This document shows positions 1,745 to 63,305 of a DNA stretch of 64,000 bases, piece after piece; position 1 is the first letter of the stretch; each line of letters begins with the position of its first letter. Under the pieces are notes generated by a model. That model saw only the letters and a program-made list of their open reading frames with translations, did no database searches and was not told the origin of the DNA. The stretch is taken from assembly GCA_944320495.1 (NCBI GenBank), contig CALUHR010000013.1:1-64000 (forward strand), given 5' to 3'. The translations under genes were made by a program, and so were the position numbers. The stretch comes from Candidatus Methanomethylophilaceae archaeon (GTDB taxonomy: Archaea; Thermoplasmatota; Thermoplasmata; Methanomassiliicoccales; Methanomethylophilaceae).

Positions 1745-2908
1745 TCACTCGTACGATCCGCGCCTCATCCTCTCGAGGGCCAGCTTGATCCTCTCGACGG
1801 GCTCGGTGACGGTCATACGGATGTATCCGTCGGCGCTCTCTCCGAACCCGTTTCCGGGCGTGACGATGACGCCGAGGTCGATCATCTTCTGGGTGAACTC
1901 GGCCGACGGCATGCCGCAGTCGAACCAGACGTAGAACGTGCCCTTGGGCATGACCACGTCGTACCCGAGCTCCCTGAGGCCCTCGACGAGGACCCTCCTG
2001 CGCTCGGCGTAGGTGGCCATGTTGTCCCTGACGGCCTGCGGGACCTCCCCGTCGTCGCCATAGAGGCTCAGGGCCTTGATGCCCGCGTCCTGGATGAAGG
2101 GCGGGGCGCCGGAGTCGGTCTGGCCCTTGCACTTGGTCAGCCCGGCGATCAGGTCGGGGTGGCCGACGGCGTATCCGAGCCTGAACCCGGTCATGTTGAA
2201 CGTCTTGGAGAACGAGCCGAACTCGATGGCGTCCGGTCCGACCTGGAGGATGGACGGCGCCCTGTAGCCGTCGTAGCACATCTCGGAGTAGGCGGCGTCG
2301 TAGCACAGGATGGTCTTGTTCTCCTGGCACCAGTCGTACACCTTCTTCAGGTACTCGATGTCGCAGGTGGCCCCCGTCGGGTTGTTCGGATAGTTGATGT
2401 ACAGCATCCTGGCGCCCTTGGGGCACTCGTCCACGTCGAGCAGCCAGTTCTTCTCGGCCCTCAGGGGGACCTTCACGCACTTGGCCTCGTTGAAGATCGT
2501 GGCCGCTCCCGAGTACACGGGGTATCCGGGGGAGGGGGCGACGATGGTCTCGCCGGCGTTGACGAACGCCTGGGCGATGTTGAAGATCGCCTCCTTTGAA
2601 CCAATCGTGATGCACACCTGGGTGTCCGGGTCTATGTCCAGCCCGAAGCGCTTCTTGTACCACTCGGCGACGGCCACGCGGAGGCGTCTCTCGCCCTGGG
2701 ACGAGGAGTACTTCTGGTTCTCGTTCCTGGCCGCGGACTCCGCCATGGCCTCGACGACGCACTCCGGCGTCGGGAGGTCGGGATCCCCGATCCCGAAGTC
2801 GATCATGTCCCATCCGGCCTTCCTCTTCTCCGCGGAGAGCTTCTCGAGCCTCACGAAGAGGTAGGGAGGGATCTGCTTCAACCTGTCTGCCTGTTCGAAT
2901 GTAGTCAT
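1745..2908 (-). CDS. dapL: LL-diaminopimelate aminotransferase
   Basis: Class I/II PLP aminotransferase motifs GIGDPD, NYPNNPTG, DAAY and SFSKTFNMTGFRLG; last gene of the lysine operon. Confidence 0.85.
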   Translation of the reverse strand: MTTFEQADRLKQIPPYLFVRLEKLSAEKRKAGWDMIDFGIGDPDLPTPECVVEAMAESAARNENQKYSSSQGERRLRVAVAEWYKKRFGLDIDPDTQVCITIGSKEAIFNIAQAFVNAGETIVAPSPGYPVYSGAATIFNEAKCVKVPLRAEKNWLLDVDECPKGARMLYINYPNNPTGATCDIEYLKKVYDWCQENKTILCYDAAYSEMCYDGYRAPSILQVGPDAIEFGSFSKTFNMTGFRLGYAVGHPDLIAGLTKCKGQTDSGAPPFIQDAGIKALSLYGDDGEVPQAVRDNMATYAERRRVLVEGLRELGYDVVMPKGTFYVWFDCGMPSAEFTQKMIDLGVIVTPGNGFGESADGYIRMTVTEPVERIKLALERMRRGSYE

Positions 2909-2912
2909 CGTA

Positions 2913-3743
2913 TCACGAAACCTCGCCCTCGAAGACCAGCTCCGCCGGTCCCTCCATAAGGGCGTACTTGAGATCCTTGTCGATCGTTATCCTCAGCCAT
3001 CCGCCCGGGAGCTCCACGTCGACCGGCTCCCCGAAGGGTACGCGCCCGGTCAGGGCGGCCGCGGTCGTGGATGCGCACGCTCCGGTCCCGCAGGCCAGCG
3101 TCCATGCGGCGCCGCGCTCGTACACCCGGATGTGTATCTTGCCGTCCTCCACCCTGCAGAACTCCACGTTGGTCTTGCGGGGGAAGAAGGGATGGCGCTC
3201 CAGCACCGGGCCCAGCATGTCGATCTGGGCGTCGGTGAGCTCGGTGAACGTCACGAAGTGGGGGTTGCCCATGGACACCGCGCTGGCCCTGAGCTCGATT
3301 CCCTCGACGGTGAACGGCTGATCTATGAACTCGCCGTCATGGTCGATGGGCACGGTGCGGCCGTCGGTGATGGGCGCGCCCATGTTGATCCTCACGGTGG
3401 AAACCTTCCCGGAATCGTCGCGGAACGTCTCCGCCACCAGGTCGCCGGCCAGGGTGTGGATCCTGAACCTCTCGGCGCCCACGATGCCGTAGTCCCAGGC
3501 GTGCTTGGCGACGCAGCGGATGCCGTTGCCGCACATCTCCGCCTCGGTCCCGTCGGCGTTGATGATCCTCATGGTAATGTCGGTGCCCTCTCCGGGGAGC
3601 ACGTAGAGCACCCCGTCGGCCCCGATGCCGAAGTGGCGGTCGCACATGCGCCTGCACCACTCGGGGTCCACCGACAGCTTCCCGTCGGTGCCGTCCAGGA
3701 GGATGAAGTCGTTCCCCAGCCCCTGGTACTTCCAGAACCTCAT
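2913..3743 (-). CDS. dapF: Diaminopimelate epimerase
   Basis: MRFWKYQGLGNDF, EMCGNGIRC, MGNPH, ERGAAWTLACGTGAC. The ATG at 3743 overlaps the lysA stop (ATGA). Confidence 0.95.
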   Translation of the reverse strand: MRFWKYQGLGNDFILLDGTDGKLSVDPEWCRRMCDRHFGIGADGVLYVLPGEGTDITMRIINADGTEAEMCGNGIRCVAKHAWDYGIVGAERFRIHTLAGDLVAETFRDDSGKVSTVRINMGAPITDGRTVPIDHDGEFIDQPFTVEGIELRASAVSMGNPHFVTFTELTDAQIDMLGPVLERHPFFPRKTNVEFCRVEDGKIHIRVYERGAAWTLACGTGACASTTAAALTGRVPFGEPVDVELPGGWLRITIDKDLKYALMEGPAELVFEGEVS

Positions 3744-7249: not shown

Positions 7250-7672
7250 TCGTGCCTCCCCGTAATGCTCCTTCAGTATCAGCCTTGTCCTGGTGCTGAG
7301 GATGTTGTCGTACCGGCGGACCCTCTCGATGATCTCGTTGAGGTGCTGCGAGGACTCCACGTCGACGATCGCGATGATGTCCTGGTCGCCGGTGACCTCG
7401 AACACCTCGGTGACCCCGTCGTACCCGGCCAGCTCCCTGGCTATCTCCTGGGTGTCGGTGTTAACCGCGATGCTGATCTCCACCAGCGCCTTGACGTTCT
7501 TCGAGCTCGTCTTGATGGTGAACCCGCGTATGATGCCCTCCTCGACCATCTTGTGGACCCTGCTGCGCACGGTCCCCTCAGATACGCCGAGCTGGTTGGC
7601 TATCTCGACGAACGGACATCTCGAGTCCTTCTTCAGCAGCTCTATGATCTTCTTGTCGAGGTTGTCAATCAT
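7250..7672 (-). CDS. Lrp/AsnC-family transcriptional regulator heading the lysine operon
   Basis: LDKKIIELLKKDSRCPFVEIANQLGVSEGTVRSRV HTH plus a RAM domain (VFEVTGDQD). The first CGA (7252-7250) gives 140 aa ending 5 nt before the dapA ATG. The standard code extends 61 codons to 7067, into dapA. Confidence 0.9.
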
Positions 7673-7820
7673 ATCGATCACCCGGGCTCCGCCTGATGGT
7701 CCGAGTGAAGTGCGCCACGATATTAAATCTATGGGAAAACGCGGTCCGACGGGCGTTATCCGCAGTGGTCGGACCGCCGCCGGCGGGATGCGATGCCCGC
7801 CGGCTGCGAAATTCGCAGAA

Positions 7821-9556: not shown

Positions 9557-10393
9557 ATGGAACCGGAGGGCATCATCGGACTGCTGCAGACGTTTGTCGT
9601 CCTGACCGTCATGGCCTCCGGGGCCGTCTGCGACTCGAGGACCAGACGCGTCCCCGACGCGCACTGGCTCATCCTGTGCGTCACCGGGATCCCCCTGGCG
9701 GCCACCGGGATCGGGATCGGAGGCGGCCCCTGGGCGGGGGTGCTCTACGCCGCCGGCGGCCTCCTGCTCTCATGGTACATGCTGTCCGGAAGGCTGATCG
9801 GACCGACCGCCGCGCCGGTGGTGGCAGCGGGGTTCGCGATGATGGCCCTGCCGGTCCTGACCTCCGGGATCGCTGACGGGATCATCTCCGCCGCGATGTT
9901 CGCCATGTGCGTCCTCCTCCACAGATGCGGGCTTCTCACCGGAGGGGCGGACGCCAAATGCGCGATGACGCTGGCACTCGTCCTACCTTCTCTACCGGAG
10001 ACGTCGGTCGTCCCGCTGCTGTGGCACGGCTCGGCGCTGCCCCCCGTGCTGTCCGTCCTACTGCTGGCACTGGCGATCTCCCTCGCCGGGTCGCTGTGGA
10101 TAATGGCCCTGAACATCCGCGCAGGCTATACCGGAAAGGGGATGCTCACGACGTTGGAGACGGATGTAGGATCCATGGACCCGGACTTCCACTGGCCCGT
10201 CCAGAGGCCTGTGGGAGGGGATCTCGTCGGATGCAGGGGATCGCCCGGGACCGCGGCGGACATCATCCGCGAATTGCAGAATGCCGGGATCGCGAGGGCA
10301 CGCGCCGAGCTCCCGGTGCCGTTCGTCGCACCGATGTTCCTGGCACTCGCCCTGGTGCTGATCCTCGGGGACCCCGTCGGCGCACTATGCCGA
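9557..10393 (+). CDS. A24-family prepilin/preflagellin peptidase-like membrane protein
   Basis: AVCDSRTRRVPD, TGGADAK and C-terminal PVPFVAPMFLAL. Ends GDPVGALC then CGA at 10391-10393; standard end is 10468. Confidence 0.75.
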
Positions 10394-11390
10394 GGTCGAA
10401 CCCGCAGTTGGAGCACCTGGAACCGTCCAGCTCGGATGCGTCGACCGAAAACCCGAACCTGCGTATGACCGGCCTGCCGCACCTCGGACAGAAGGTGTCC
10501 CCCGGCCCTTCTGCGATGATGTTGCCGACGTAGACGAAGTTCAGACCCTCCTCGATGCCTATCTCCCTGCACCTGAGCACCGTCTCAACGGGCGTCCACG
10601 GGACGTCGGTCAGCTTGTAGTCCGGATGGAACCTGGTGAAATGGACGGGCACATCGGACGAGAGCTCCGACGCCACCCACGAGCAGAACGCACGCACCTC
10701 GTCCTCTGAGTCGTTGAGCCCCGGGATCACCAGGTACGTGAGCTCGAGATGCACCCCCTCGGAGAACACGATGCGGACCGAGTCCAGGACGTCCCGGAGA
10801 TGGGCACCGCACTCCCGCGTGTAGAACTCCTCGGTGAACCCCTTGACATCGATGTTCATGGCGTCCGCGATATGACATAGATCCCTGAGGAGGGCCTCGC
10901 ACGCCAGCCCGTTGGTCACCAGGACGATGCGTATGTCCGGGTCCACGGCGGCCACGTCGCGGATGTACTCGTACCAGATCATCGGTTCGTTGTATGTGAA
11001 CGCGATGACGCCCAGGCCCTCGCGCCTGCAGTGGGCCACCAGATCCTCCGGCGACACGTAGGTGGACCTCCTCCTGCCGGTCGGTATCGATGAAATCGCG
11101 AAGTTCTGGCAGTGGAGGCAGCGCATGTTGCACCCGGCGCCGCCTATGGACAGGCATCTCTTCCCGGGCATGTAGTTGTAGAGGGGCTTCTTCTCCATCG
11201 GGTCCACGCACATCGACGTGACCTTCCCGTAGCTGGACGCGAACAGCGTCCCGCCCTCGGCCCTGCGGGCCATGCAGCGCCCGGTCTGTCCCTCACCGAT
11301 CCTGCAGTGGTGCGGGCACAGGCCGCAGACGAAGACGTCGCCGTCCCTCTCGCAGTAAGCGGCCTCGATGCGCGGATCGGTATTCACCAT
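10377..11390 (-). CDS. amrS: AmmeMemoRadiSam-system radical SAM enzyme (PFL-activase-like)
   Basis: CGLCPHHC N-terminus, VDPMEKKPLY, CNMRCLHC radical SAM motif, FTYNEP, C-terminal CPRC...CSNC. Ends CGFDLGIVR then CGA (10379-10377); standard end is 10263. Confidence 0.85.
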
Positions 11391-12309
11391 AGGGGATCAC
11401 CGTCCTCTCGCCCCCGTCGATCAGGTGGGGTGCGCCGGTGTCGTTGACTATCCCGATGATCGAGAATGGCACCTCGGCCTCGTAGAGCCTGTCGAGCCCG
11501 TCCTGGGGCGCGGTGAAGACGAGCTCGTACTCCCCTCCCCAGCCCAGGAGCAGGTCCCTGACGTCCCTGCCGGACGCCTCGGCCATCTCATCGACCGACG
11601 GCCCCCTCGGTACGAACGACAGCTCCACCTCCATGCCCACGCCGGAGGCGGTGCATATGGTGTTCAGCGCCGTGCCGAGCCCGTCGGACAGGTCCATGCA
11701 CGACGTGACCACCCCCGTCGCGGCCATCGCCTCCCCCTCGGCCACCCTCGGGACCGGGACGTAGAGCTGGTTCCTGGCGTCCTCGGCATCGATGCCGAGC
11801 TCCAGCGAGACGAATCCCGCCGCCGGGCCGCCGACCGGCCCGGTCACTGCGACGAAGTCTCCCGGCCTGGCGCCGGAGCGGAGCATCGGCCTCCTGCCGT
11901 CCATGGATCCGAGCGCGGTCGTCGTGACCACCCCGGGACCCACCTTGGTGTCCCCACCGGCGATCCCGGTGCCGCAGAACTCGGCGCACTGGCTTATCCC
12001 ACTCATTATGTCATACGCGGCCTGGACGTCCAGGTCGCCCGGGAGGACCAGCGACGCCAGTATCCCCGTGGGGCGCGCGCCCATCGCCGCGAGGTCACTG
12101 AAGCTGACCGCCGCGGAATACCAGCCGAACTGCTCGTACGTCATGCCGGCGGGCATATGCCTGTCGAAGGTCACGGCGTCCGTGGAGACCACGACGCCCT
12201 TGCCGAGCACCGCGGCGTCGTCGCCGGGGCCGACCTCGCCCTCCCGGGCTATGAACGTCCCGAAGTCCTCTATGAGCTGCCTCTCGCCGATCTCTCCGAT
12301 CAGGGTCAT
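11377..12309 (-). CDS. thiL: Thiamine-monophosphate kinase
   Basis: GERQLI, GDDAA, SDLAAMGARP, GGDT, MDLSDGL and GGEYELVFT. The first CGA at 11379-11377 gives a 14-nt overlap with the amrS start; standard end is 11293. Confidence 0.9.
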
Positions 12310-12341
12310 CACGACTCCATCGAGTCGGAGATATAAGGGTT

Positions 12342-12380
12342 GCTCAGATGATGAAGAATTAATTACTCCATCATCTGAGC
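12342..12380. terminator. Inverted-repeat hairpin downstream of the Mrr-type gene
   Basis: Perfect 12-bp arms GCTCAGATGATG / CATCATCTGAGC with an AT-rich loop, 9 nt past the stop at 12390. Confidence 0.55.
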
Positions 12381-12389
12381 CAGGCTTGA

Positions 12390-14027
12390 TCATGCCTTGT
12401 TTAGTTCTTTGGCTTCTTTAAGATCAATTCTAGCCCTATAACCATGCTTCTGAAGCAGATACAGCAGTTCTGCACCATTGAGAAGAGTCAGAGGCTTGTC
12501 TTTGGCAAAATTGTAAGCATCGTTTCCGTAGTTTGAGGTTGTTACAAGAATTCCCTTTGTTGCACCCTCGTTCATCACCGTACCATACAGATCTCTTACT
12601 GCCGATACTCCGACCACGTTCGTGTACCTCTTTGCCTGAATGACAATCTTGCCACCACGTATCGGATCCGGGTCGAATGCCACTGCGTCTACACCACCAT
12701 CGCGACTGGCTTGTGTGATCTTAACCTCACCACCATTTGAACTGAACTCTTTCTCGAAGATTTCTCTGATGAGATTCTCGAAATCTTGCCAGTCAATTGC
12801 TGCTAGATTCACACTGTCATCGATTGTATCTACGACATTATAGCCATCTATGAATCTCTTATCCTCGCGAGACATTGTGATCAAAGGTGCTACAGGTGTG
12901 ACATTGGCCAGAGAAGCTGCGGACACGCCCTTGGAACTCTTGAACCATGCCTTAGGGTCAACAGATGAAAGGTTCACCTCTTCGAATGACTCGCGAGATA
13001 CATTAACTGAGAGGACATATGGTTCGATTTCCTTCCCAGTAGACTTGTCGATCGTACTGACTCTTCCATTGATTACGATAGCAGAGACGGGACAGTTAAG
13101 TTCTAGACTGAAAACGAAGTTGATACATTGGAGTACCATCTGGTAGATTACACTATCATACTTCTTTTTCAGATACGATTCTGCGAAATGAGTTTCCTTG
13201 AACTCATTTCTTGACTTGACGTAGGTTACAGCCTTCAATGTCGGAATATCTTCCAACTTTGGAAGCATATAATCTACAATCACGAGGTCTGTTTCAGGAT
13301 TGTATTCCACCTCAATCAGTTTATCGTAACTGAATGGGAGTGCGAGTCTCTCAATCGCCTCCCTGACATACCATTCAACAGAGGGTACATCACCAGATTG
13401 AACCTTCTGATAGAGAGCATCGATTTTTGAGTTCTCTGAATCACGAACTCTCTCGAACTCATTCTTCCTTTGCTCCCAGTTTGCTACTTCCTTGTTGTAA
13501 GCGTCTTGTGCGACCTTATTGTTATGTGTAACGCGATCGCATTCTCTTTTCCAAATTTCATAGTCTGATTTATAAGCAAGGTTGTCAGACTCTGTCAATT
13601 CGGCCATCTTTTTCTTTGATAGTTTGGCAAACAAAGTTGGCTGTGAATTGTACTTGGAAGACTTCTTATCAGGCTCAATCGGAAGTTTCTCGAACACTGG
13701 CCTAGAAGGGGAAGGTTCTTCGAACTCTGAGAAATCCTTGAACTCGTTGATAGTGAATTGGTGAGAGCCCAGATTATCCAGAAGAATCCTGTCCATTGCT
13801 TCCTGAACTTCTTCTGCCTGTGTTGTAATTTCTTTGGCATAGGCTATGGAGTCGGCTTCATCGCGAATCTTTGCTTCACGTGCTTGCTTTTTCTCCCACT
13901 GTTCGTCCCACTGATCTTTCAGAGCGCGTACCTTCTGATCCAGCTCATATTGAGTTGCTGCCTTGACTATGCGATATTTATGCAACCCCTCATGTGAAAC
14001 TTCAGCTTGGTATGGGTATGTCACCAA
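12390..14027 (-). CDS. Mrr-family (type IV-like) restriction endonuclease with long N-terminal coiled-coil region
   Basis: C-terminal Mrr_cat: WQDFENLIREIF, ASRDGGVD, IQAKRY, VGVSAVRDLYG, GILVTTS and LLNGAEL. Markedly more AT-rich than the flanks. Confidence 0.85.
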   Translation of the reverse strand: MVTYPYQAEVSHEGLHKYRIVKAATQYELDQKVRALKDQWDEQWEKKQAREAKIRDEADSIAYAKEITTQAEEVQEAMDRILLDNLGSHQFTINEFKDFSEFEEPSPSRPVFEKLPIEPDKKSSKYNSQPTLFAKLSKKKMAELTESDNLAYKSDYEIWKRECDRVTHNNKVAQDAYNKEVANWEQRKNEFERVRDSENSKIDALYQKVQSGDVPSVEWYVREAIERLALPFSYDKLIEVEYNPETDLVIVDYMLPKLEDIPTLKAVTYVKSRNEFKETHFAESYLKKKYDSVIYQMVLQCINFVFSLELNCPVSAIVINGRVSTIDKSTGKEIEPYVLSVNVSRESFEEVNLSSVDPKAWFKSSKGVSAASLANVTPVAPLITMSREDKRFIDGYNVVDTIDDSVNLAAIDWQDFENLIREIFEKEFSSNGGEVKITQASRDGGVDAVAFDPDPIRGGKIVIQAKRYTNVVGVSAVRDLYGTVMNEGATKGILVTTSNYGNDAYNFAKDKPLTLLNGAELLYLLQKHGYRARIDLKEAKELNKA

Positions 14028-14199
14028 CTCACCAATCCTCTAATGAAATAAATTGAGATAATCTTTGGGGATATGATAGAAACTATGCCTTAAATCAGAA
14101 ATCCAAAGAATTTAAATTATAAATTGTCAAATAACTTTCAAAAAACACACATTCTTTAAATATAAGTGGCCGATTCGAAACCCAATAGGAGCAATATTC

Positions 14200-14574
14200 T
14201 TGCCTGGTCAGTCCGCAACAACGCAGCCGAAGAAGAACAAGGTCGTCGTCAACAAGCCCCAGACGGGGAACCAGTACGACAAGGGGAAGAAGAACAGACC
14301 TCAGAGGACCAAGGAGTCCACCAAGAGACAGGCGATGCTCAACACCCACCGCATCAACCCCTTCAAGTACGACATGAACCAGATTCTCGATGCGTCCGCC
14401 ATGGACCCCGCAAAGGCGTCCTCCTTCCTCGCCTCGGTCATCGCCAAGGCGTCCCGCGTATCCACCAAAGACGCGAAGGACTTCGTGAGGACCTTCCAGG
14501 ACGCGGGTGACCTCACCAAGGACGAGGTCGACAAGATCAGCAAGCTCCTGGACAAGTACAGCAGATACCGCTGA
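14200..14574 (+). CDS. Basic hypothetical protein
   Basis: TTG start after a GGAG SD-like site; host-like codon usage; Lys/Arg-rich N-terminus and helical C-terminus; TGA stop. Confidence 0.7.
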   Translation: MPGQSATTQPKKNKVVVNKPQTGNQYDKGKKNRPQRTKESTKRQAMLNTHRINPFKYDMNQILDASAMDPAKASSFLASVIAKASRVSTKDAKDFVRTFQDAGDLTKDEVDKISKLLDKYSRYR

Positions 14575-14583: not shown

Positions 14584-15033
14584 ATGAGGAGCGCCGAGCT
14601 CGCCAGGGGGAGGGTCTTCATCCTGCGCCTGGAGGACGGCGAGGTCCTCCGCGAAACCATAGAATCATTCTGCAGGGACAACGGCATAGCTCGCGCCCTG
14701 GTGCACGTCACCGGCGCCGTGGATGAGGGGTCCCGCATGGTCAGCGGCCCGAGGGTCCCCGTGGGGGACAGGGTCGAGCCCATCGTCATCGAGCTGGAGG
14801 ACCGGTGCGAGGTCACCGGGCACGGCACCGTGTTCCCAGATGCGGACGGCAACCCGCTGCTCCATCTCCACGGCTCCGTCGGGAGGGAGGGGTTCTGCGC
14901 CACTGGCGACTTCGGCCCCGGGATGGTGTCCTGGCTCGTGATGGAGGTGCTCATAGAGGAGCTGGTCGGCGACGGCCCTGTCAGGGAGGAGTCCGACCCC
15001 AGGATAAGCGGTAAACTTCTGGAGATGAGACGA
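14584..15033 (+). CDS. PPC/DUF296-domain protein
   Basis: RVFILRLEDGE, GHGTV and PLLHLHGSVG. Ends KLLEMR then CGA at 15031-15033, overlapping the next ATG by 1 nt; standard end is 15147. Confidence 0.8.
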
Positions 15034-16595
15034 TGGCATCCGAGGAGATACTCAGGAAGACGATCCACAACGCGGACGGCAAGCCCTTCGCCAAATACAG
15101 GAACATACAGGGCTCCTTCGTCACCGAGGGCTTCGAGCTCTTCATAGACGAGGTCCAGGGGGACCGCATGGGGCACTCCAGGATGAGGGTCCGCGTCCCC
15201 ATGAAGAGGGCCGGATTCCCAGAGGACACCCGTTCCAACGCGTCGCGCAGAGCGGCCCTCGGCGACATCATAGCCAGGAGGTTCTGGGAGTCGGCCAGGA
15301 CGCACGCCCGCTCCAACATCCCCAAGACCGACGGGGGCGTCGTCTACATGCCCCGCCCCGGCCAGGAGATCCTCGACCGCGGTAGCGTGGAGGTCACGGA
15401 GCACTACGTGGAGGCGCGCTTCACAGCCGACCTCCCCTCGAAGGCCAACAAGGTCGACGAGGAGTCCGCCATCGACCTCATCTTCGGGAGGATCTCACTG
15501 ATCGTCTCCGAATCCATGCTGTTCGCCTCCTACAAGAGACAGAAGCTCTACAACCACCTGGAGACCGCCGAGAACGCGGACTCCATCAGGTCCAGGCTCC
15601 CGGAGCTGGGCCTCGCCGCATTCGTCGGCATCGGCTCGATCCTGCCACGCAGGGACGACGGCCTCGCCCCCATGACCGACGCGGTCCCTTTCGACTGCGA
15701 CGACTCCCTCAAGGTGACCGTCGAGGTCCCCAACGGCGACCCCGTCACCGGCATGGGCATACCGATCGGGTTCACCACGGTCTCCGGACCCAGCGGGTCC
15801 GGGAAGTCCGTCCTCGCGGACTCCGTGTTCGCCGGCATCTACGACCACATCCCGGGAGACGGGAGGGAGCTCGTGATCTCCGACCCTGACGCCGTGTACG
15901 TGATGACCGAGGCCGGCAGGCCCTACGAATCCGTGAGGCTCACGGGACCAGCCTCCGAGATGGAATCCGTGGACGAGGCGGTAGGATGCGGATCACATCT
16001 CATCATCATGGACGAGGAGTACTCGTGCCCGTGCGTCCTGCGCAGGTCGGTCATCTCCGGCGACGACGACGTGGTCCCCGTCTCGGAGACCGCCGGCTCC
16101 CTCGGCCGCTCCGGGATCTCGGTGCTCATGGTCACCGGGGACGGCGACGCCGTCTCCAGAGCGGGGCTCGCCCTGTCCATGGACGGGTACAGGGTCGGGA
16201 GACTCGACGTCGAGTGTCGTGAAGGGTCGGAGTTCCCGATCCCCCAGGGGCGCTACCCAGTTGCGAAGAACGTCTCCTTCGAGAAGGGCAGGAAGGAGGT
16301 CAGCACCTCCGCCCCCGAGATCCGCACCGTAGAGATCGGAGAATACAGGGTGACGGCTCCCGTCGCAGGGTTCTTCGACCACGCCCAGACCAGGACAGTG
16401 GCGGACGCGATAGCCCTGGCCCGTGAATCGATGGACGGCTCGAAGGATCTCAGGACCGTCTGCGGGGATGCTCTGGCGATGCTGAGGGAGAAGGACGCAT
16501 CCGAGGGCACCGGCATGGCCCATGCGCAGGCCAGGGCCGTGGACATGGCCGCGGTGCTGCTGAGGCACCCTCAGATGCTGTTCATAAGGCGCTGA
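15033..16595 (+). CDS. ABC-class ATPase-domain protein (COG3044-like)
   Basis: N-terminus resembling the family (IDEVQGD, PGQEILDR, VEARFT), Walker A-like GPSGSGKS, HIPGDGRE and Walker B-like IIMDEE. Confidence 0.7.
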   Translation: MASEEILRKTIHNADGKPFAKYRNIQGSFVTEGFELFIDEVQGDRMGHSRMRVRVPMKRAGFPEDTRSNASRRAALGDIIARRFWESARTHARSNIPKTDGGVVYMPRPGQEILDRGSVEVTEHYVEARFTADLPSKANKVDEESAIDLIFGRISLIVSESMLFASYKRQKLYNHLETAENADSIRSRLPELGLAAFVGIGSILPRRDDGLAPMTDAVPFDCDDSLKVTVEVPNGDPVTGMGIPIGFTTVSGPSGSGKSVLADSVFAGIYDHIPGDGRELVISDPDAVYVMTEAGRPYESVRLTGPASEMESVDEAVGCGSHLIIMDEEYSCPCVLRRSVISGDDDVVPVSETAGSLGRSGISVLMVTGDGDAVSRAGLALSMDGYRVGRLDVECREGSEFPIPQGRYPVAKNVSFEKGRKEVSTSAPEIRTVEIGEYRVTAPVAGFFDHAQTRTVADAIALARESMDGSKDLRTVCGDALAMLREKDASEGTGMAHAQARAVDMAAVLLRHPQMLFIRR

Positions 16596-21647: not shown

Positions 21648-21944
21648 ATGGCATACGACCCGGATGTTGCGATAACGCTCTGGCCCGAATACTTCGACAA
21701 GGGACTCACCAGAGCCCAGGGCAGGAGGCTCCCCAAGGACCTCTGCGTCGCGAAGCCGGACCTGGACATGATCGCCAAGGGCGCGATGCTCCTGGACCTG
21801 GAGTACGAGGTCAGGGAGGACATGTCCTACCCGAAGGCGCCCCGTGAGAAGCACGGATGCGTCAAGGTCGAGAAGGGGAAGCTCTCCAAGACAGAGATCC
21901 TCCCGAGGATCGGACAGGTCCTCGTAGAGAACCAGGGAAGGCGA
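21648..21944 (+). CDS. srp19: Signal recognition particle 19 kDa protein
   Basis: LWPEYFD, GRRLPK and YPKAP. Ends ENQGR then CGA at 21942-21944, 5 nt before the nnr TTG; standard end is 21956. Confidence 0.9.
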
Positions 21945-42948: not shown

Positions 42949-44217
42949 ATGGACCCCTCCCTGCTGGCAGTATGTCTCGCGATGTCCGCGGTCGGATGCG
43001 CACTGGGCCTGTTCAGCGGCCTCGTCCCAGGGATACACGTCAACACGCTGGCGGCTATGCTGCTGACCGCATACCCTGCCCTAGAGGCCGCGCTGCCGCT
43101 GGGAGAGACGGAGGCGGCCGTCGCCGTGGGATGCTGCGTGATGGCGGCCTCCGTGGTCCATTCCTTCGTAGACTTCGTGCCCTCGGTCTTCATAGGGGCG
43201 CCGGATGCGGAGGACGCCGTCTCAGTGCTCCCCGGACACCGTCTGCTCCTGGCCGGGAGGGGCATGGAGGCCGTCCGTGCGGCGGCCGTCGGAAGCCTGG
43301 TCGGATGCTCCGCCTCGCTGCTGCTGGCACTTCCCCTCCAATGGGCCCTCATTCACGGTGCGGAGGGACTGCTGGACCTCCTGACGCCTGCTGTGCTTAT
43401 GCTGGCGTGCGCTGTCCTGCTCTCGTCCGAGTGGCGCAGAGGGAACGGCCTGTGGGGTCCCGCCCTGATGCTCCTCTCCGGAACCCTCGGGCTGGGCTGT
43501 ATGGTGCTGCCGATACCCATGGACGGCGTGCTGGGGGAGGGGAGCGTCATGATGCCCCTCCTCACCGGGCTGTTCGGGGTGCCCGTGCTGCTGGAGACCG
43601 GCAGGGCATCCAAGATACCTCCGCAGAAGGACATCGTCTCGGATCCCGTGGGGGTGCGCCCGGGGCTCCGCGGCGTCCTGATGGGGGCCGTCGCCGGATG
43701 GTTCCCCGGGATCACGTCCACCGTCGGGGCATCGATGTCCGCCGCGGTGCTGCCCGAGAGGGGCCCGGCGAGATTCATCTCCACGGTCGCCTCGATAGGC
43801 ACCGTCACGTCTGTGCTGGCACTTGTCACCCTGTCCGTCTCGGGGAACGGCAGGTCGGGGACCGCCCTGGTCATCGGGGACATATTGGAGGGGTCCCTCG
43901 GCGGGTTCGCCTCGGGTCCGTTCCTGATGCTGCTGCTATCCGCGGCGGTGGCATCGCTCGCGGGATACTGGCTCACGATAGCCAGCGGAAAACTTCTGTC
44001 CCGCACCGTCGGCAGGATCGACCCACTGAGGCTCAGCAGGGCGATGCTGGCTCTCCTGACGGCGCTGACGTTCGCCCTGAACGGCCCGGCTAGCCTGCTG
44101 GTCCTCGTCTCAGCCACGGCCGTCGGGCTGCTGCCCGGGATGTGCGGCACCGGGAGGGTCATCCTCTGCGGAAGCCTGATACTCCCGGTGCTCGCGTTCA
44201 AGCTGGGTCTCGCCCGA
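42949..44217 (+). CDS. TctA-like (tripartite tricarboxylate transporter family) integral membrane protein
   Basis: GLVPGIHVNT, HSFVDFVPSVFIGAP, VLPGHRLLLAGRG and PLLTGLFG. Ends AFKLGLA then CGA at 44215-44217, abutting the thioesterase stop; standard end is 44829, which would span the whole thioesterase gene and enter the helicase gene. Confidence 0.82.
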
Positions 44218-47700: not shown

Positions 47701-48446
47701 CCTCCGATCCGTCCTTCGGCAAGGCCGTGAACGACGAGATGCGCAGGTTCGACAACGGCGAGGACGTGGGACTGTTCATCAAGAACATCGAGTCCGTCCA
47801 GGGGGACGAGCGCGACGTCATCATGTTCTCCGTCGGATACGCCAAGAACAGCGAGGGCAAGCTCATGCAGAGGTTCGGATGGCTCAACAACCGCGGAGGG
47901 GAGAACCGTCTGAACGTCGCCATTTCCAGGGCCAAGAAGAAGATCTACATCGTCACGTCCTTCGACCCGGAGGACCTGCAGGTGGACAACGTCAAGAACG
48001 ACGGCCCCAGGATCCTGAAGAAGTACCTCCAGTACGCCCGTGCGGTCAGCGACGGGGACAAGGGCATGGCGGATTCCATCCTCAAGTCCTTCGGCGACGA
48101 GCGCTGGACCGTCCCCGACGAGATCGGCGAGTCCAAGATCGCGGACAAGGTCTACAACGCCCTGGTCCGCAAGGGATACACCGTCGAGCGCAACGTAGGC
48201 ATCGGAGGGTACCAGATCGACCTCGCCGTCAGGCAGAGGGACAGGTACATCCTCGGCATAGAGTGCGACACCCACCTCTACAACCTCCCGGCATCGACGA
48301 GGGAGAGGGACTACCACAGGCAGAAGTACCTCGAGTCCAGGGGGTGGAGGATCCACAGGGTCTGGACCCCGGGGATGTGGAAGAGTCCCGAGAGGGAGAT
48401 CGCCAGGATAATAGAGGCCATCGAGAAGAGCACCGGGACGGTCTGA
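44715..48446 (+). CDS. HRDC - DUF4011-like - SF1 (Upf1-like) helicase - Vsr-like nuclease multidomain protein
   Basis: N-terminal HRDC-like segment (ICSDEALREMA...IVGVGQRFVEQYG), QGPPGTGKS, LVSEKKTALDVV, IFDEASQ, GDHKQL, HYRS, ESVQGDERD, RLNVAISRA and C-terminal GYQIDLAV...IECD...RGWRIHRVW. Confidence 0.8.
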   Translation: MGLEDDLYDELFELRENLRDERRQSNGRIPQICSDEALREMAQRVPTKTSDFSAIVGVGQRFVEQYGEDFLEVTRKYAITAANGSNIDAEAAQTLRELEKKLININKANRLLFQPKLSRKNAFDVMTLPDVDIMGLVFGNKRTLKLVDTAKGPEATKAYRHLNEIIREVNREQRDKGQYDLYVAYPFVEGKMPDGDLDIRAPLALFPVILEKDTRVITLKMDDSRDAIYNNTLILGFIKASGVNRPLPDNILEDYSGESFMSNLIEFYEANGIRLDYQYGLPVQFTEYKAGEFPKYQPGETKLVPNILIGKYPTYSSSIQKDFDGMLAGREINGILNDLIVDLNKTDYLSDLPMPLSEEEIADKGLEASERDLIYINSLNSSQENIIAAMDRGDEIVVQGPPGTGKSQVITGLITSAVMKGRTVLMVSEKKTALDVVYSRLGTLSKYCLQIDDVANKESFYKQLARMLECGQPKRPVDVDAVSDQIDNDVLLLDNIADVMYKPGDFGIEPYKLYAMDRWLNLDDRRQFDEYKVLKDNIEPSLLNLKYPAVRELHRKFGDPTLMRNFDEYKRLVQTNPWMTQMKPDLSEYNIGEMKADLLDLDKQLAEWKTKGFMSKMFSKGKISREATAMVDKYFANYNEHTVNGVLENPRSYFDALDGYETYSSRATVYGRLNDDEKNYGDDILAVSGETKMTFRESNDRIFDWILNEHLQMFDASHKDIMQEIWDFESIIADMDRKIGEKRELCKDKVEEIFQQNLKYITESKRRGDINRIVESKRKWNLNKFIGRYGYELFKGVRVWLLTPEVVSEILPLEMGIFDVLIFDEASQMYVEKGVPSIYRAKKVIVAGDHKQLRPSSLGVGRIEYESDEDDPEDDVSAALEEESLLDLARARYDSILLNFHYRSKYEELIAFSNYAFYGGRLYVSPNVEEPERPPIEVLRVDGLWEDKSNMAEARQIVSLLKDFFATRRNNETVGIITFNSSQRDLISDVLDEECASDPSFGKAVNDEMRRFDNGEDVGLFIKNIESVQGDERDVIMFSVGYAKNSEGKLMQRFGWLNNRGGENRLNVAISRAKKKIYIVTSFDPEDLQVDNVKNDGPRILKKYLQYARAVSDGDKGMADSILKSFGDERWTVPDEIGESKIADKVYNALVRKGYTVERNVGIGGYQIDLAVRQRDRYILGIECDTHLYNLPASTRERDYHRQKYLESRGWRIHRVWTPGMWKSPEREIARIIEAIEKSTGTV

Positions 48447-48460
48447 GAGGGTTGCTGGGA

Positions 48461-50476
48461 ATGAACGTCGGCGAGATAGACAGGAGGGGAGTGCGCGTCC
48501 TGCTGCTATGCTACATCATCTCGCTGATGTTCACCGTCGTATTCACGAGGCTCCCGGAGACGCTGGACTTCTCCGCCGCGCTGGGAGTGGCCCTCGGGCT
48601 GCTCTCCGGCCCCTGGGGGGCGGCCGGGTTCTCCCTCGGCTACCTCACCACGGGACTGGCCGACGGGGGATCGCTGGCCGAACCGGCCACCGAGACGGCT
48701 GTGCTGTTCCTGGTGTCCTACCTGGCGTACCGCCTCTGGTACTCCACGCTCACATGGATCAGGCCGAAGACGCCGATTCTGGGGACCGCCCACAACATGG
48801 GGAAGGTGTTCCTGGTCTCCGCCGGCTCGTCCATCGTGTACGCGTGCCTGGACCACGGGCGCTACATCGTGATACACGGACAGAGCAGCATGCTGCTGCT
48901 GGATGTGAACACCATACTGCTGGTGCTCGCGCCCTCTATCATCCTCACTATGGCCGCCATCTTCGTGACGGGCGTCCTGAGGATACCCCACTGGACCCCC
49001 AGGCCGGCGGCGATCAAGGGCTATCTGCCCTCCTTCGACCCGAGGGTGTTCGACCTCGCACTGGTGCTCTCCATACCGGTGGCGCTGTCGTCTTCGCTGG
49101 CCGGGAGCTTCGCCTGGGTGCCGACCGTCGCGGCCTGCGCGCTGGTCGGGTTCTCGCTCCTGAAGCCGTCCATGGCGGTGCGCGAGTGGGAGCTCCCCGC
49201 CAAGGGCAAGGGGGCGAACACCTTCAAGAACCAGGTCAACGACCGCATCATCATCATGCTGTGCATGATCGGCCTCGGCGCCATCCTTCTCGTGGCGCTC
49301 ACCTACACCTACGGTCCGCTGGGCGACCTGCCCCTGGTGGTGGAGCTCGTGAAGGACTACGACGGCATCCTGCCGGGCGACCCGGCGGAGCTCGCCAAGT
49401 CCCTCTCGCTCCTCACGTACATCACGATCGCCATGTTCACCCTCATGGCCGTGGTGCTGATCCTGCTGAGGTTCATCGAGAACAGCGTCGTCACGCCCAT
49501 CAGGGCCATGTCCAGGGTCGCCAGGGACTTCATCATCTCCGATTCCGAGGTCAGCGCGGACGAGGTCGCCGACAGGTGCGCCGTCTACGCCGACAGGGAC
49601 AACGAGATCGGGGACCTGGCCAGGTCCCTCGGGAAGCTCACCAGGGACGTGGCCGACTACGTCCACGACATCGAGTCCCTCACCAGGGACAAGCAGGCGT
49701 ACCGCGCCGAGCTGGCCATCGCCAGGCAGATCCAGATGGAGCTGGTCAACAGGGACTTCGACTCCATGGACGGCACCGGGGTCAGGATCAGCGGTGTGAT
49801 GGACACCGCCAAGTCCGTGGGAGGGGACCTCTACGACTTCATGGCCCTCCAGCGCTACAAGGTAGCCGTGACCATCGGCGACGTCTCCGGCAAGGGGGTG
49901 CCCGCCGCGCTGTTCATGTCCCGCACCAAGACCCTCATAGAGGACCACGCGGGCCACGGCACCGACCCCGCCACATCCTTCCACGAGATCAACAACGCCC
50001 TCGCCAGGCACAACACCCAGGTGCTCTTCGTGTCATGCTGGCTCGGCATCATCGACACCCGCACCGGCGTGGTGGAGTTCGCGAACGCGGGCCACTGCCC
50101 GCCGCTGGTGCTGAGGGCGGCCACCGGGGAGGCCGAGTTCGTCCAGATGGACCCGTGCCCGGTCCTGGGGGTCATACCCGACACCGACTACAAGGTGGAG
50201 ACCCTCAAGCTGGAGATGGGGGACAGACTCCTGCTCTACACCGACGGCGTGACCGAGGCCAACGCCGGATACGAGGAGTTCTTCGGCGCCGAGAGGCTCA
50301 AGGGCGTGCTGGAGGACACGGCGTCGCTCACACCGGCGGACCAGCTCAAGGTCATCCGCGACGACGTGAGGAGCTTCGTCGGGAGCAACGAGCAGTTCGA
50401 CGACATCACCATGCTCATAGTGGAGTTCCAGGGACGCAGCAGCGCCACTGGGCTCCGCGCGGCTCCGGACGAGTGA
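48461..50476 (+). CDS. Membrane-bound PP2C/SpoIIE (RsbU-like) phosphatase with HAMP-like linker
   Basis: Multi-TM N-terminus, DNEIGDLARS HAMP-like helix, VGGDLYD, IGDVSGKGVPAALFM, NAGH, LYTDGVTEA and DDITML. Confidence 0.88.
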   Translation: MNVGEIDRRGVRVLLLCYIISLMFTVVFTRLPETLDFSAALGVALGLLSGPWGAAGFSLGYLTTGLADGGSLAEPATETAVLFLVSYLAYRLWYSTLTWIRPKTPILGTAHNMGKVFLVSAGSSIVYACLDHGRYIVIHGQSSMLLLDVNTILLVLAPSIILTMAAIFVTGVLRIPHWTPRPAAIKGYLPSFDPRVFDLALVLSIPVALSSSLAGSFAWVPTVAACALVGFSLLKPSMAVREWELPAKGKGANTFKNQVNDRIIIMLCMIGLGAILLVALTYTYGPLGDLPLVVELVKDYDGILPGDPAELAKSLSLLTYITIAMFTLMAVVLILLRFIENSVVTPIRAMSRVARDFIISDSEVSADEVADRCAVYADRDNEIGDLARSLGKLTRDVADYVHDIESLTRDKQAYRAELAIARQIQMELVNRDFDSMDGTGVRISGVMDTAKSVGGDLYDFMALQRYKVAVTIGDVSGKGVPAALFMSRTKTLIEDHAGHGTDPATSFHEINNALARHNTQVLFVSCWLGIIDTRTGVVEFANAGHCPPLVLRAATGEAEFVQMDPCPVLGVIPDTDYKVETLKLEMGDRLLLYTDGVTEANAGYEEFFGAERLKGVLEDTASLTPADQLKVIRDDVRSFVGSNEQFDDITMLIVEFQGRSSATGLRAAPDE

Positions 50477-50675
50477 GATGGGTCTACCGCGCATTCGTGA
50501 GACCGCTGACCACCCTCCTATGATGCATGATCCTGGGACACGCCCGACGTCGATCCCGGCGATGGACCTGGCCTTGACGTTCCTGGTCGCGTAAATCCGC
50601 GAGGACATAATGGAATTGGGCGACACCAAGCGGTTCGACGGCATGACGACGCTGCTGGCCCGCTACGACGGACCG

Positions 50676-51014
50676 TCGCACCAGGCGCGAGCGGACCATG
50701 TCCTGATAGGCCGCGCCCCAGAGGTCCAGCTCCTCCAGGACCGGGAGGACGGACATGCCGACGCTCGTAAGCGAGTACTCGACGCGCTGGGGCGAGTCGC
50801 AGACCACAGTGCGACTGATCAGACCGTCGGACTCCAACTCCCTCAGGGTTATCGTGAGCATGCGCGACGACCCCTCCCCAGTGAACCGCTTGAGCTCGTT
50901 GAAGCGCATCCGCCCATGGGAGGACAGCATCCACAGGACGAGGATCTTGTGCTTGCCGCCGAGGAGCCTTATCGTGGTGGCGAACGGGGTCTCCCCCTCG
51001 GGTATCGGGTCCAT
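50676..51014 (-). CDS. HxlR-family transcriptional regulator
   Basis: LLGGKHK, RFNEL, MLTITLRELESDGLISR and RVEYSLT. The first CGA (50678-50676) gives 112 aa; the standard code gives 176 aa (to 50484). Confidence 0.87.
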
Positions 51015-51951: not shown

Positions 51952-52199
51952 ACCAATACTATACTTTTGGATAGTATATGTCATTTTATACTGTACTTGA
52001 TATAAATAAACAGATAGCCATCATGGAACCAGATGCCTCCAGGCGTCCGCCATCGATATGCCACGAGACGGCCTCCGTCGGGACCGGCCTGCAGAGACCT
52101 GGGGCCGGTCCCGAAACCAGTCTACGATGGCAATGTTTAAGATATCCTAAATGCCTGGAAGGCCATCGGTCCGCCGAGACGGACCCGGAAGTGAATGAT

Positions 52200-52418
52200 A
52201 TGGCCAAGACAACGATCAAGATCGAGGGAATGATGTGCGAGGGCTGCGTGAAGAGCGTCAGAGAGTCCCTCGAGAAGGTGCCCGGCGTCAAGAGCGTCGA
52301 TGTCAACCTGAAGAAGGGCACGGCCGTTGTCCAACAGGACGGCGTGGCCGACGAGGCCCTGATCAAGGCGGTCGTCGACGCGGGCTTCCGCGGAACCGTT
52401 AAGCACGGGCTCTTCCGA
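52200..52418 (+). CDS. copZ: Heavy-metal (copper) chaperone, CopZ-like
   Basis: [13 protein letters not shown] motif. Ends HGLF, then CGA (52416-52418, overlapping the copA ATG), then TGA (52419-52421). Confidence 0.88.
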
Positions 52419-57580: not shown

Positions 57581-58141
57581 TCGCTCCCTGTCGTCGTACA
57601 TCACCCTGTACTCCGAAGAGGTGTACAGCGGCGAGAACCAGGCGTACTTGAACCAGCTCCACAGGGACAGCTCGTCCTCCATCATGGGCATGTAGTACCT
57701 GCGTATGGGCGCCCAGAACATCACGGCGATCACGGCGAGAGCGAAGGGCGTCACCAGAAACGGGTTCATGACCACCAGCGACGAGGCCGAGAGCGGATCG
57801 TTCCCGTACCAGGCGATCAGATTGAAGATCACCAGGAGCATCGCGGCGCGTACCGCCTTCTTCCACGCCTTCGGCCTGCGGGACGACACGACGAGCAGGG
57901 AATCCATCGTCACGAGCATCATCGCCATGTCCACCAGGAAGGTGGCGATCGACACGAACTGGTTTCCATAGCCCTCGTTCATGCCCATCGCAAGGACGGC
58001 CAGCTTGGTCAGGTAGATGGCGACGATGATGACAAGGAAAGACTGCGCCACCTTGAGGACGAACGGACGCGCTCCCCTGTGGAAGAGCCCCTCCGCCGTC
58101 TCGGACGGCGACCAGCTCGAATCCTCCCGGAATCTGGGCAT
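57581..58141 (-). CDS. Hypothetical membrane protein (about 4 TM)
   Basis: Several hydrophobic helices and host-like codons. Ends YDDRE then CGA (57583-57581), abutting the nop10 CGA; standard end is 57563. Confidence 0.7.
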
Positions 58142-59180: not shown

Positions 59181-59292
59181 CCCCACCTAGCTCAGACTGG
59201 CTAGAGCGGCTGACTGTAGAGTGTCTTCGGAAGAAACCGATACAGCCGCTGAAATCAGCAGGTCCCCTGTTCAAATCAGGGGGTGGGGACCA
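59181..59292 (+). tRNA. tRNA-Tyr(GTA) with about 34-nt intron at 37/38 (about 59220-59253), CCA encoded
   Basis: Acceptor CCCCACC/GGTGGGG (C1:G72, the archaeal Tyr identity), D arm GCTC/GAGC, anticodon stem GCTGA/TCAGC with CT-GTA-G, T arm CCCTG-TTCAAAT-CAGGG, discriminator A, then CCA. Confidence 0.9.
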
Positions 59293-59942: not shown

Positions 59943-60006
59943 ACCATCCGATACGGCAGGAGGTCCATCTAATCGTTCTAAGCCCGCGTCCTGATTCCAT
60001 CCTCCG

Positions 60007-61847: not shown

Positions 61848-61859
61848 CGATGACAACAG

Positions 61860-61877
61860 CCGGGGCACTTGCCCCGG
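61860..61877. terminator. Hairpin between the convergent AGCS and MFS genes
   Basis: CCGGGGCA-CT-TGCCCCGG. Confidence 0.5.
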
Positions 61878-61907
61878 CACTAAACCGCTTCCACGATTTC
61901 TGGCACA

Positions 61908-63305
61908 TCAACCCTTGGGGTCGCGGACCCGCATCGAAACGATCAGACATGCCACCGTCATGACCGTTCCGACCAGACAGGCGAAGTGCGTCCCCTCCAG
62001 GATTGCTGACCCATCCATCACGTCGACGCTCGACGCCATCCCTCCCGGGGACGCCGCCTTGAAGAGCAGCGCGAAGACCGCCACGCCCAGGGCGGTGGCT
62101 ATGTAGTTCGTGAAGAGCACCACGGCGGCCGAGGACGGTCTCAGATCCTCCTCGACGTGTATCTGCATCCTTGTCGGCAGCGCGGTGCCGGCGATGCCGA
62201 AGGACGCGCCCATCAGGACCAGCTGCATCAGCAGGAACGCCAGCCCCATTGACGGCTCTATGACCACGAGCATCGCGCAGAAGGCCACCCTCATCACGAG
62301 CGAGACGTTCGACGGAAGGACGCACCCGTACCTGCGGCACCAGCTCCCGGCAGGTATGGAGAACACCGCTGATACCGTCGTGGCGACCGACAGGAGCAGG
62401 CCTGCGGCTAGCGTGTCGTAACCGGCCGATCCCGTGAGATAGTACGGCAGCAGATACATCACCCCGCATCCGATGATGCTGTTGACCAGGAACAGGGAGG
62501 TGATCGCGTAGTACCTCCCGTTCCCGCGGAGCGGGATGTCCATCAGCCTCTCGCCCTCCGTCCCCCTGCGGCCGAGCGCCAGGAAGACGGCCATCGACAG
62601 GATGCAGATCACGGCCAGCACGGCGGTGTACCATACGAACAGCCCGCCGGTCCACAGCTCCAGGACGACCATGCCGGTCGCCACTGCGACGAACATCGCG
62701 GCCGCCCGCATCGGCTCCGGCATCCGGGACATGCTGCTTGGGGATACCTCCCGCATCCGCAGTGCCAGCGCCACTACGATGACCCCGACCGGGACGTTGA
62801 TGAGAAAGATCCAGTGCCACTCCGACAGGCCGGTGATCAGCCCGCCGAGCGCGGGACCGAGGATGATCGCCACGCAGCAGGCCGCGTTCATGTAGGCCAT
62901 GCCCATGTGGCGCCGCTCCGACGGCAGCATCGAGGTACACATCGCGGGCGTGGCTGACACCATCATCGCCGCACCCAGGCCCTGCACGAACCTGAACGCT
63001 ATCAGTACGCCCCTGTCGCCCGACATGGCGCAGCCCACGGACGCAGCCGTGAACACGACCGTGCCGAGGACGAGCATCGCACGGACCCTCCCGTCGGACG
63101 CCAGCCTGGAGAGCGGGATGCACAGGCCAGCCAAGGGGAAGAGATACGCGACGACGACGAACGCCCCGTCCGTCACGCTCATCCCCAGATCCACGGACAT
63201 CTCGGGCAGCGCTACCTGGACGATGGACGCGTCCAGACTGTCGATCAGGAGCACCAACGTCATCGTCGCGATGACCAGACCCGTGCCTCCGCGCCCCCCT
63301 CCCAT
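61908..63305 (-). CDS. MFS drug:H+ antiporter (DHA2/EmrB-like, 14 TM)
   Basis: LDASIVQVALP, FRFVQGLGAA, GPALGG and WIFLINVPVG. Confidence 0.88.
   Translation of the reverse strand: MGGGRGGTGLVIATMTLVLLIDSLDASIVQVALPEMSVDLGMSVTDGAFVVVAYLFPLAGLCIPLSRLASDGRVRAMLVLGTVVFTAASVGCAMSGDRGVLIAFRFVQGLGAAMMVSATPAMCTSMLPSERRHMGMAYMNAACCVAIILGPALGGLITGLSEWHWIFLINVPVGVIVVALALRMREVSPSSMSRMPEPMRAAAMFVAVATGMVVLELWTGGLFVWYTAVLAVICILSMAVFLALGRRGTEGERLMDIPLRGNGRYYAITSLFLVNSIIGCGVMYLLPYYLTGSAGYDTLAAGLLLSVATTVSAVFSIPAGSWCRRYGCVLPSNVSLVMRVAFCAMLVVIEPSMGLAFLLMQLVLMGASFGIAGTALPTRMQIHVEEDLRPSSAAVVLFTNYIATALGVAVFALLFKAASPGGMASSVDVMDGSAILEGTHFACLVGTVMTVACLIVSMRVRDPKG

Follow-up and report, generated by a model that had tools for sequence, protein, structure and literature searches.

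Gene Calls in the Window and Genome

The window analyzed here covers the opening 64 kb of contig C13 in the 1.77 Mb genome of a gut methanogen (G000; 62% GC, 14 contigs), an archaeon that RNA polymerase subunit B places in the family Methanomethylophilaceae of the Methanomassiliicoccales. The nearest named relatives are Candidatus Methanoprimaticola (87–89% identity), and one further assembly carries a 99% identical subunit. Our subject is the codon CGA, which translation table 11 reads as arginine, and its use at the ends of genes in this window and genome. An initial annotation of the window had counted 50 genes ending in TGA, 16 in CGA, and none in TAA or TAG, and had proposed that CGA acts as a gene terminator, a proposal that the present analysis supports.

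Genes were found with a self-trained codon-score caller, run with table 11 and then with CGA as a fourth terminator. Under table 11 the window held 54 genes with TGA at every end, and the genome 1450 genes (1276 ending in TGA, 110 in TAA, and 64 in TAG). With CGA as a stop, the window yielded 63 genes (48 TGA, 15 CGA) plus a low-GC gene for an Mrr-type restriction endonuclease, and not a single TAA or TAG end; at 49 TGA (Mrr included) and 15 CGA, this reproduces the earlier counts to within a few small open reading frames (ORFs), and the AT-rich Mrr gene was confirmed to end in TGA. The same procedure gave 1648 genes genome-wide, of which 1174 ended in TGA (71%), 403 in CGA (24.5%), 52 in TAA (3.2%), and 19 in TAG (1.2%), and raised coding density from 0.81 to 0.86. 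The CGA share of the window (15/64) equals that of the genome. Table 11 calling loses or distorts real genes in the window, for example those at 40158–41135 and 42949–44217.

Genes Ending in CGA

Thirteen of the 15 CGA-ended genes of the window lie within positions 1745–63305. Their ends were compared with those of orthologues in five congeners (G098, G104, G106, G112, and G118), for which coverage was wide in G098 (900–960 kb) and 50–105 kb in each of the remaining relatives. The genes are listed below with their CGA codons; offset 0 denotes a congener stop at the same codon.

330–863, minus strand, CGA 330–332: isochorismatase-family gene; Pfam Isochorismatase spans residues 6–174 of 177 (to profile position 171/175); the table 11 ORF continues to TAG at 294; outside 1745–63305.
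1134–1613, minus strand, CGA 1134–1136: MarR-type regulator gene (MarR_2); the in-frame CGAs of the table 11 ORF, at codons 160, 162, and 175, are all in the tail; outside 1745–63305.
7250–7681, minus strand, CGA 7250–7252: Lrp/AsnC regulator gene; AsnC_trans_reg reaches profile position 73/73 at residue 138/143; TGA at the exact codon in 5/5 congeners.
9557–10393, plus strand, CGA 10391–10393: membrane protein gene; overlap with the convergent gene about 200 nt under table 11 versus 17 nt with the CGA stop; no orthologue with an aligned C-terminus among the five congeners.
10377–11390, minus strand, CGA 10377–10379: radical SAM gene (Radical_SAM); at offset 0, CGA in G098 and G118, TGA in G104, G106, and G112.
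11377–12312, minus strand, CGA 11377–11379: AIR-synthase-related gene; AIRS_C reaches profile position 152/156 at residue 296/311; congeners at offset 0: CGA, CGA, TGA, TGA.
14584–15033, plus strand, CGA 15031–15033: PCC-domain gene; PCC spans residues 10–128 of 149 (to profile position 116/117); at offset 0, CGA in G098 and TGA in G118; the table 11 ORF runs to TAG at 15147; CGA and the start codon ATG of the following gene (15033) overlap as CGATG.
21648–21944, plus strand, CGA 21942–21944: SRP19 gene; SRP19 profile 1–89/95 in a 98-residue product; at offset 0, TGA in four congeners and CGA in G104.
32962–33258, plus strand, CGA 33256–33258: small gene without a Pfam match; congeners at offset 0: TGA, CGA, CGA, TGA, TGA.
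38828–40156, plus strand, CGA 40154–40156: ABC-2 permease gene; ABC2_membrane_3 reaches profile position 346/347 at residue 417/442; at offset 0, TGA in G098 and G118, CGA in G104; the next gene starts at 40158 and would be overlapped by 200 nt by the table 11 tail.
42293–42871, plus strand, CGA 42869–42871: phosphoribosyltransferase gene; rpoB-linked orthologues have TAA or TGA at this codon, with CGA also in L001, L004, L018, and L034; genomes with CGA there include a separately assembled 96% identical one and three more distant ones.
42949–44217, plus strand, CGA 44215–44217: TctA-family transporter gene; TctA profile 1–419/423 in a 422-residue product; at offset 0, TGA in G098 and CGA in G104.
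50676–51014, minus strand, CGA 50676–50678: HxlR regulator gene; HxlR spans residues 17–105 of 112 (to profile position 88/91); the table 11 ORF is 64 codons longer, to TAG at 50484.
52191–52418, plus strand, CGA 52416–52418: HMA metallochaperone gene; HMA reaches profile position 61/62 at residue 66/75; CGA in G104 at offset 0, TGA at +1 in the other congeners; the CGA overlaps the ATG of a P-type ATPase-like gene (52418) as CGATG.
57581–58141, minus strand, CGA 57581–57583: gene without a Pfam match, known from the gene model alone and the weakest case; no orthologue with an aligned C-terminus among the five congeners.

Three Pfam-supported ORFs that seemed to end in TAG (294–947, 14584–15147, and 50484–51014) were rejected as TAG-ended genes; they are tails extending past CGA, and their Pfam domains end just before that codon.

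Position of CGA within Genes

In the ORFs of the window, in-frame CGAs occur only in 3′ tails, where they are often clustered and overlap the neighboring gene, or upstream of the real start. Genome-wide, the last decile of table 11 ORFs holds 317 of 452 in-frame CGAs (70%), compared with 9–32% for fifteen other (rare) codons, and this position signal is far beyond chance. Coding score turns negative past the first CGA, with a median tail of 12.5 codons. Elsewhere in the genome, CGA splits unrelated genes that share a reading frame, namely Pelota from an HMGL-like synthase, PdxT from a Sel1-repeat protein, and a NifH-like from a NifD-like protein.

If the code were ordinary, CGA would be arginine and the proteins would be longer at the C-terminus, up to the next TGA, TAA, or TAG. 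This is the table 11 result that public gene callers assume, and a tRNA-Arg(UCG) gene does exist in the genome. The tails, however, lose coding signal, overlap neighbors, and fuse unrelated genes, the orthologues stop exactly at the CGA position, and CGA is absent from gene bodies. Table 11 would have CGA at conserved arginines inside genes, and the sole clear internal case is Arg-81 of the release factor aRF1; it would also have every gene end in TAA, TAG, or TGA where its orthologues end, and 403 of 1648 genes end at CGA. Tails, fusions, orthologues, and the absence from gene bodies together largely refute the ordinary code for this organism, and we regard it as highly improbable. Since the false tails past CGA overlap neighboring genes, public annotations of these genomes likely hold extended and fused proteins.

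Orthologous Stops and Distribution among Relatives

At the CGA sites of the window, the five congeners have TGA 28 times, CGA 12 times, and TAA once, and conversely a TGA site of the window is CGA in a congener 6 times. Genome-wide, the counterparts of CGA sites in about 900 kb of G098 are TGA in 87 cases, CGA in 10, and TAA in 2, the stop being shifted in 18. Because CGA sites are mostly TGA in congeners, CGA is derived from TGA by a single T-to-C change; the aligned sequences thus indicate that CGA ends arise from TGA and are interchangeable with it among congeners. The same counts, both for the window and against G098, contradict the earlier suggestion that CGA took over the share of TAA. 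From G098 to G000, the share of TGA falls from 88% to 71% and that of TAA from 6.4% to 3.2%.

Six genomes of the genus have CGA in gene bodies at 0.00–0.24 per 1000 codons, and CGA ends 4%, 5%, 10%, 12%, 18%, and 24.5% of their genes. Several other genera of the Methanomethylophilaceae have almost no CGA at all, and in some of these few genes end in CGA. In more distant relatives the codon is spread evenly, at about 1 per 1000 codons. The CGA signal therefore follows phylogeny, and the codon is missing inside genes but stands where orthologues have their stops, which is the pattern of a sense codon turned stop. With Pfam domain ends, split same-frame genes, orthologous stops, and phylogenetic distribution, four independent lines of evidence agree in showing that CGA marks gene ends. 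Beyond the genus, G030 (loci L142–L146) has just three in-frame CGAs in 100 kb, all at ORF ends. CGA termination may extend beyond the genus at a low level.

The distribution also bears on whether assembly or processing swapped true stops for CGA, as the initial annotation had feared for TAA. The window matches the genome record exactly, and the TAA trinucleotide persists in the window (134 and 125 occurrences on its two strands). The same CGA sites recur in a separately assembled, 96% identical genome and in congeners from other projects. These shared sites in independent public assemblies, together with the phylogenetic pattern, exclude an artefact, to which we assign virtually no probability. 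The terminal CGA is preceded by C or G at 82% of ends and by T at only 9%, so no TCGA methylation motif is behind the signal, and we rejected a methylation-motif artefact as well.

TAA and TAG

The initial annotation had further suggested that termination follows a strict YGA rule, the organism having lost TAA as a terminator. In favor of such a loss, none of the 64 window genes ends in TAA, and the genomic TAA share is half that of G098 (3.2% versus 6.4%). TAA nevertheless ends 52 of the 1648 genes, most of them with short tails of negative coding score, and among the 19 that have an orthologue in G098, that orthologue ends at the same place in 16 (TAA in 7, TGA in 9; shifted in 3). At the genomic rates of 3.2% (TAA) and 1.2% (TAG), the probability of finding no TAA in 64 genes is 0.13, and that of finding neither TAA nor TAG is 0.06. 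With P = 0.13, the TAA-free window is a sampling effect, and loss of TAA is scarcely credible. The earlier expectation that TAA use elsewhere would reduce the window's pattern to sampling is thus borne out for the absence of TAA, but it does not account for the CGA signal; chance sampling as an explanation of the whole finding was rejected, since it applies only to TAA and TAG.

The connection drawn earlier between TAG avoidance and pyrrolysine fits the genome. A PylS_Cterm match of 260.8 bits lies above the cut-off, and most of the ORFs called as TAG-ended continue with coding signal: at least 10 of the 19 do so with a strongly positive score, and in several others a back-up stop follows only a few codons later. 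PylS and in-frame TAG inside genes, the two marks of a pyrrolysine decoder, are both present. The positive coding score past TAG fits read-through as pyrrolysine, two very large ORFs included. At C3:62673–64670 and C9:25968–30896 (both plus strand), ORFs run 1635 and 1433 codons past an in-frame TAG with strong coding score; either pyrrolysine is inserted at TAG far outside the methyltransferase genes, or two genes lie in one frame at these sites.

Context and Gene Class of CGA Ends

The base after the terminator is T at 55% of CGA ends, compared with 29% of TGA ends and 16% of out-of-frame CGAs. Stop-start junctions of the form CGATG occur at 77 of 356 CGA ends (22%), versus 80 of 1070 TGA ends (7.5%) for TGATG, a threefold difference, and CGA may be favored where the translation of two genes is coupled. 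With codon bias as a proxy for expression, CGA accounts for 38% of gene ends in the lowest quintile but for only 6% in the highest (P = 2e-24); strongly biased genes avoid this codon as a terminator.

Two further possibilities were tried and set aside. A one-base slip at CGA would meet no hidden canonical stop, since it would bring up (C/G)CG in the −1 frame or GA(T) in the +1 frame, neither of which is a stop. Additional back-up stops, as a sign of leakiness, do not distinguish CGA from TGA when canonical stops are counted; an earlier apparent difference arose because further CGAs lie downstream.

Alternatively, C-to-U editing of mRNA could turn CGA into UGA, leaving the translated stop canonical. 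The edited base is all that separates CGA from TGA, and plant organelles do make UGA stops from CGA by such editing. Genes of this genome, however, contain 44,538 out-of-frame CGA trinucleotides, and only the in-frame ones would have to be chosen; an editor cannot see the reading frame, which makes editing unlikely. It would also turn the essential Arg-81 codon of the aRF1 gene into a stop, and we consider editing very improbable overall.

Release Factor aRF1 and tRNA-Arg(UCG)

The genome has one aRF1 gene (C2:85936–87174, minus strand; locus L088/L097), whose sole in-frame CGA is codon 81, the conserved arginine of the helix after NIKS (SIAARLK). In 12 of 12 genomes of the genus, codon 81 is CGA and no other codon of the gene is, while identity between the proteins is just 84–91%; in the 10 genomes displayed its context is GCT-CGA-C. 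The release-factor gene of the genus thus keeps its own candidate target codon in frame in all 12 genomes, as prfB does in bacteria. In G000, the GRGTEL loop of aRF1, the counterpart of the eukaryotic GTS loop, has Ser for the Gly found in all 31 other aRF1 sequences examined; the genome with this substitution also has the highest share of CGA terminators. Every other aRF1 gene of the family that was examined (29 relatives, L098–L126) carries one or more in-frame CGAs, which lie at codon 14, 28, 30, 53, 81, or 126 depending on the genus. The CGA persists in aRF1 even in genera whose genes are otherwise nearly without it.

A gene for tRNA-Arg(UCG) is present in 11 of 11 genomes of the genus examined, with a noncanonical anticodon arm in each. 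Nine have a mismatch at positions 31–39, which is C·A in seven, U·C in G104, and A·A in G000, the last also with U32 and C38 instead of C32 and A38. In G106 and G112, C33 replaces the near-universal U33; BLAST and a first pattern search had suggested that these two genomes had lost the gene, a conclusion abandoned when a full tRNA scan found the diverged copy with C33. The arm has its canonical form in 10 genomes from other genera, as it does in the other four arginine tRNAs of G000. As far as the gene sequences tell, the three different 31–39 mismatches show that the pairing was never restored.

Interpretation

We think it rather probable that CGA is no longer an ordinary arginine codon in this organism and is read by aRF1 as a weak stop that closes about 24% of genes. 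The remaining genes end mostly in TGA (71%), with TAA at 3% and a small number in TAG, which otherwise stands for pyrrolysine. According to this proposal, the single release factor would accept CGA as a near-cognate of UGA, and it would outcompete the cognate tRNA-Arg(UCG) because that tRNA has been retained but weakened in its anticodon arm. CGA would then be a usable but weaker stop, spreading by TGA-to-CGA drift where selection is weak and tolerated mainly in genes of low codon bias and at CGATG junctions. With CGA at Arg-81, synthesis of aRF1 would depend on read-through of its own target codon, a possible negative feedback like that of bacterial prfB.

Several points weigh against this account. 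We infer termination at CGA from sequence alone, and we infer likewise each of its three components, namely reading of CGA by aRF1, weakening of the tRNA, and the feedback loop. The gene caller is a simple codon-score model, and the counts may therefore carry an error of a few per cent. In aRF1, the motifs that read the codon (NIKS, YxCxxxF, and the GT(S/E) loop) are the same in the genus and in relatives that use CGA as sense. No aRF1 determinant was found among these motifs, as none carries a genus-specific change, and a motif change was rejected as the cause of CGA reading, the Gly-to-Ser substitution being unique to G000. The distance to the next canonical back-up stop is no shorter for CGA ends than for TGA ends (medians 26 and 27.5 codons; P = 0.5), and so gives no sign of leakiness. 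Since the tRNA-Arg(UCG) gene is retained, some insertion of arginine at CGA is likely; and because the congeners are related, the pattern in 11 of 11 tRNA genes may reflect only a few mutational events.

The noncanonical anticodon arm would also suit a codon that is effectively unassigned, at which ribosomes stall and the peptide is freed not by aRF1 but by rescue (aPelota/ABCE1 with peptidyl-tRNA hydrolase). The concentration of CGA ends in genes of low codon bias is consistent with such stalling, as is the near disappearance of CGA from gene bodies in several genera of the family, among them ones where few genes end in CGA, which resembles a codon-disappearance stage. Rescue would nevertheless be a costly route for a quarter of all proteins, and Pelota-type factors are without the GGQ release motif. 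The T bias after CGA and the conserved CGA in aRF1 are better fitted by factor-dependent termination, and we judge stalling with rescue to be unlikely.

More tentatively, reading of CGA by aRF1 could be part of a wider arrangement, comprising a genus-wide code of four terminators with CGA as a stop captured by aRF1, a tRNA-Arg(UCG) that is deliberately weakened and kept mainly for the single CGA of the aRF1 gene, self-regulation of the release factor, and a change that is still in progress. We put this full scheme at somewhat short of an even chance.

Comparison with Known Code Changes

Organelles provide known sense-to-stop codes, with AGA and AGG as stops in vertebrate mitochondria (NCBI table 2), TCA in Scenedesmus mitochondria (table 22), and TTA in Thraustochytrium mitochondria (table 23). 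As in these codes, a former sense codon here stands at gene ends and has gone from gene bodies. The organelle codes belong to tiny genomes with reduced tRNA sets, whereas the present case concerns CGA in a free-living archaeon with a 1.8 Mb genome that keeps the cognate tRNA gene, and in which CGA shares its role with TGA, TAA, and some TAG. We know of no sense-to-stop reassignment outside organelles, and our literature search found no report of a CGA stop in archaea, nor of such a sense-to-stop change outside organelles.

Bacterial RF2 (prfB) autoregulates through an in-frame UGA, from which it escapes by a +1 frameshift. The likeness to aRF1 is that the factor's own frame holds the codon at which it terminates, putatively so for aRF1. 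Escape at CGA-81 would differ in being the insertion of arginine, and other genera of the family carry the aRF1 CGA elsewhere in the gene.

In Mycoplasma capricolum, CGG has changed or become unassigned. The resemblance to such bacterial changes is that rare arginine codons are the most change-prone and that the codon vanishes from genes first; the bacterial codons, though, received a new amino acid or stayed unassigned, none becoming a routine terminator, whereas CGA here ends genes. The Codetta screen reported bacterial reassignments of the arginine codons CGA, CGG, and AGG, and inferred no archaeal sense codon to code for an unexpected amino acid (PMC8629427).

Yeast eRF1/eRF3 measurably takes CGA for a stop, competing there with tRNA-Arg (Wada and Ito 2018, PMC7379694), and this makes the capture step proposed for aRF1 plausible. 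The yeast event is a minor one, an error or a rescue, and the mutants L123F/R/Y enhance it (PMC7379694); here CGA reading would be the normal end of a quarter of genes. The residue of this aRF1 that aligns with L123 of yeast eRF1 is an unchanged Leu.

A study of stop codons in pyrrolysine-encoding archaea that included the Methanomethylophilaceae does not mention CGA (PMC12626013). Decoding of TAG as pyrrolysine concerns the same organisms, in which TAG is a rare and ambiguous terminator (PMC12626013). That is a known stop-to-sense expansion, and the change of CGA runs the opposite way. If our reading holds, this would be a sense-to-stop reassignment in a free-living cell, and the grading of CGA ends from 4% to 24% among sister species would open the path of a code change to study, from codon loss through tRNA weakening and release-factor capture to possible self-regulation. 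Table 11 calls for these genomes would carry false tails or fusions in about a quarter of proteins. Pyrrolysine tools in wide use for genetic code expansion come from members of the Methanomethylophilaceae, and the family's termination rules therefore matter for that work.

Other Features of the Window

Genes of the window with canonical ends include the following, none of which has an in-frame CGA.

12390–14027, minus strand: Mrr-type restriction endonuclease gene (Mrr_cat domain), ending in TGA.
44715–50476, plus strand: RNA polymerase subunit genes, both ending in TGA.

The Mrr gene is carried by an island of 42% GC at 12313–14199 within the 62% GC genome, which was probably acquired horizontally. 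Beside this island, a gene at 14200–14574 ends in TGA and has the PCC-domain gene at 14584–15033 next to it in one frame, and the two look like a single ORF if the TGA is read through; the Pfam PCC domain begins only downstream of that TGA. ARAGORN predicted a tRNA-Ser(GCT) gene at 989–1076 and a tRNA-Tyr(GTA) gene with a 34-nt intron at 59181–59292, the latter accounting for one intergenic stretch of the window that had seemed empty.

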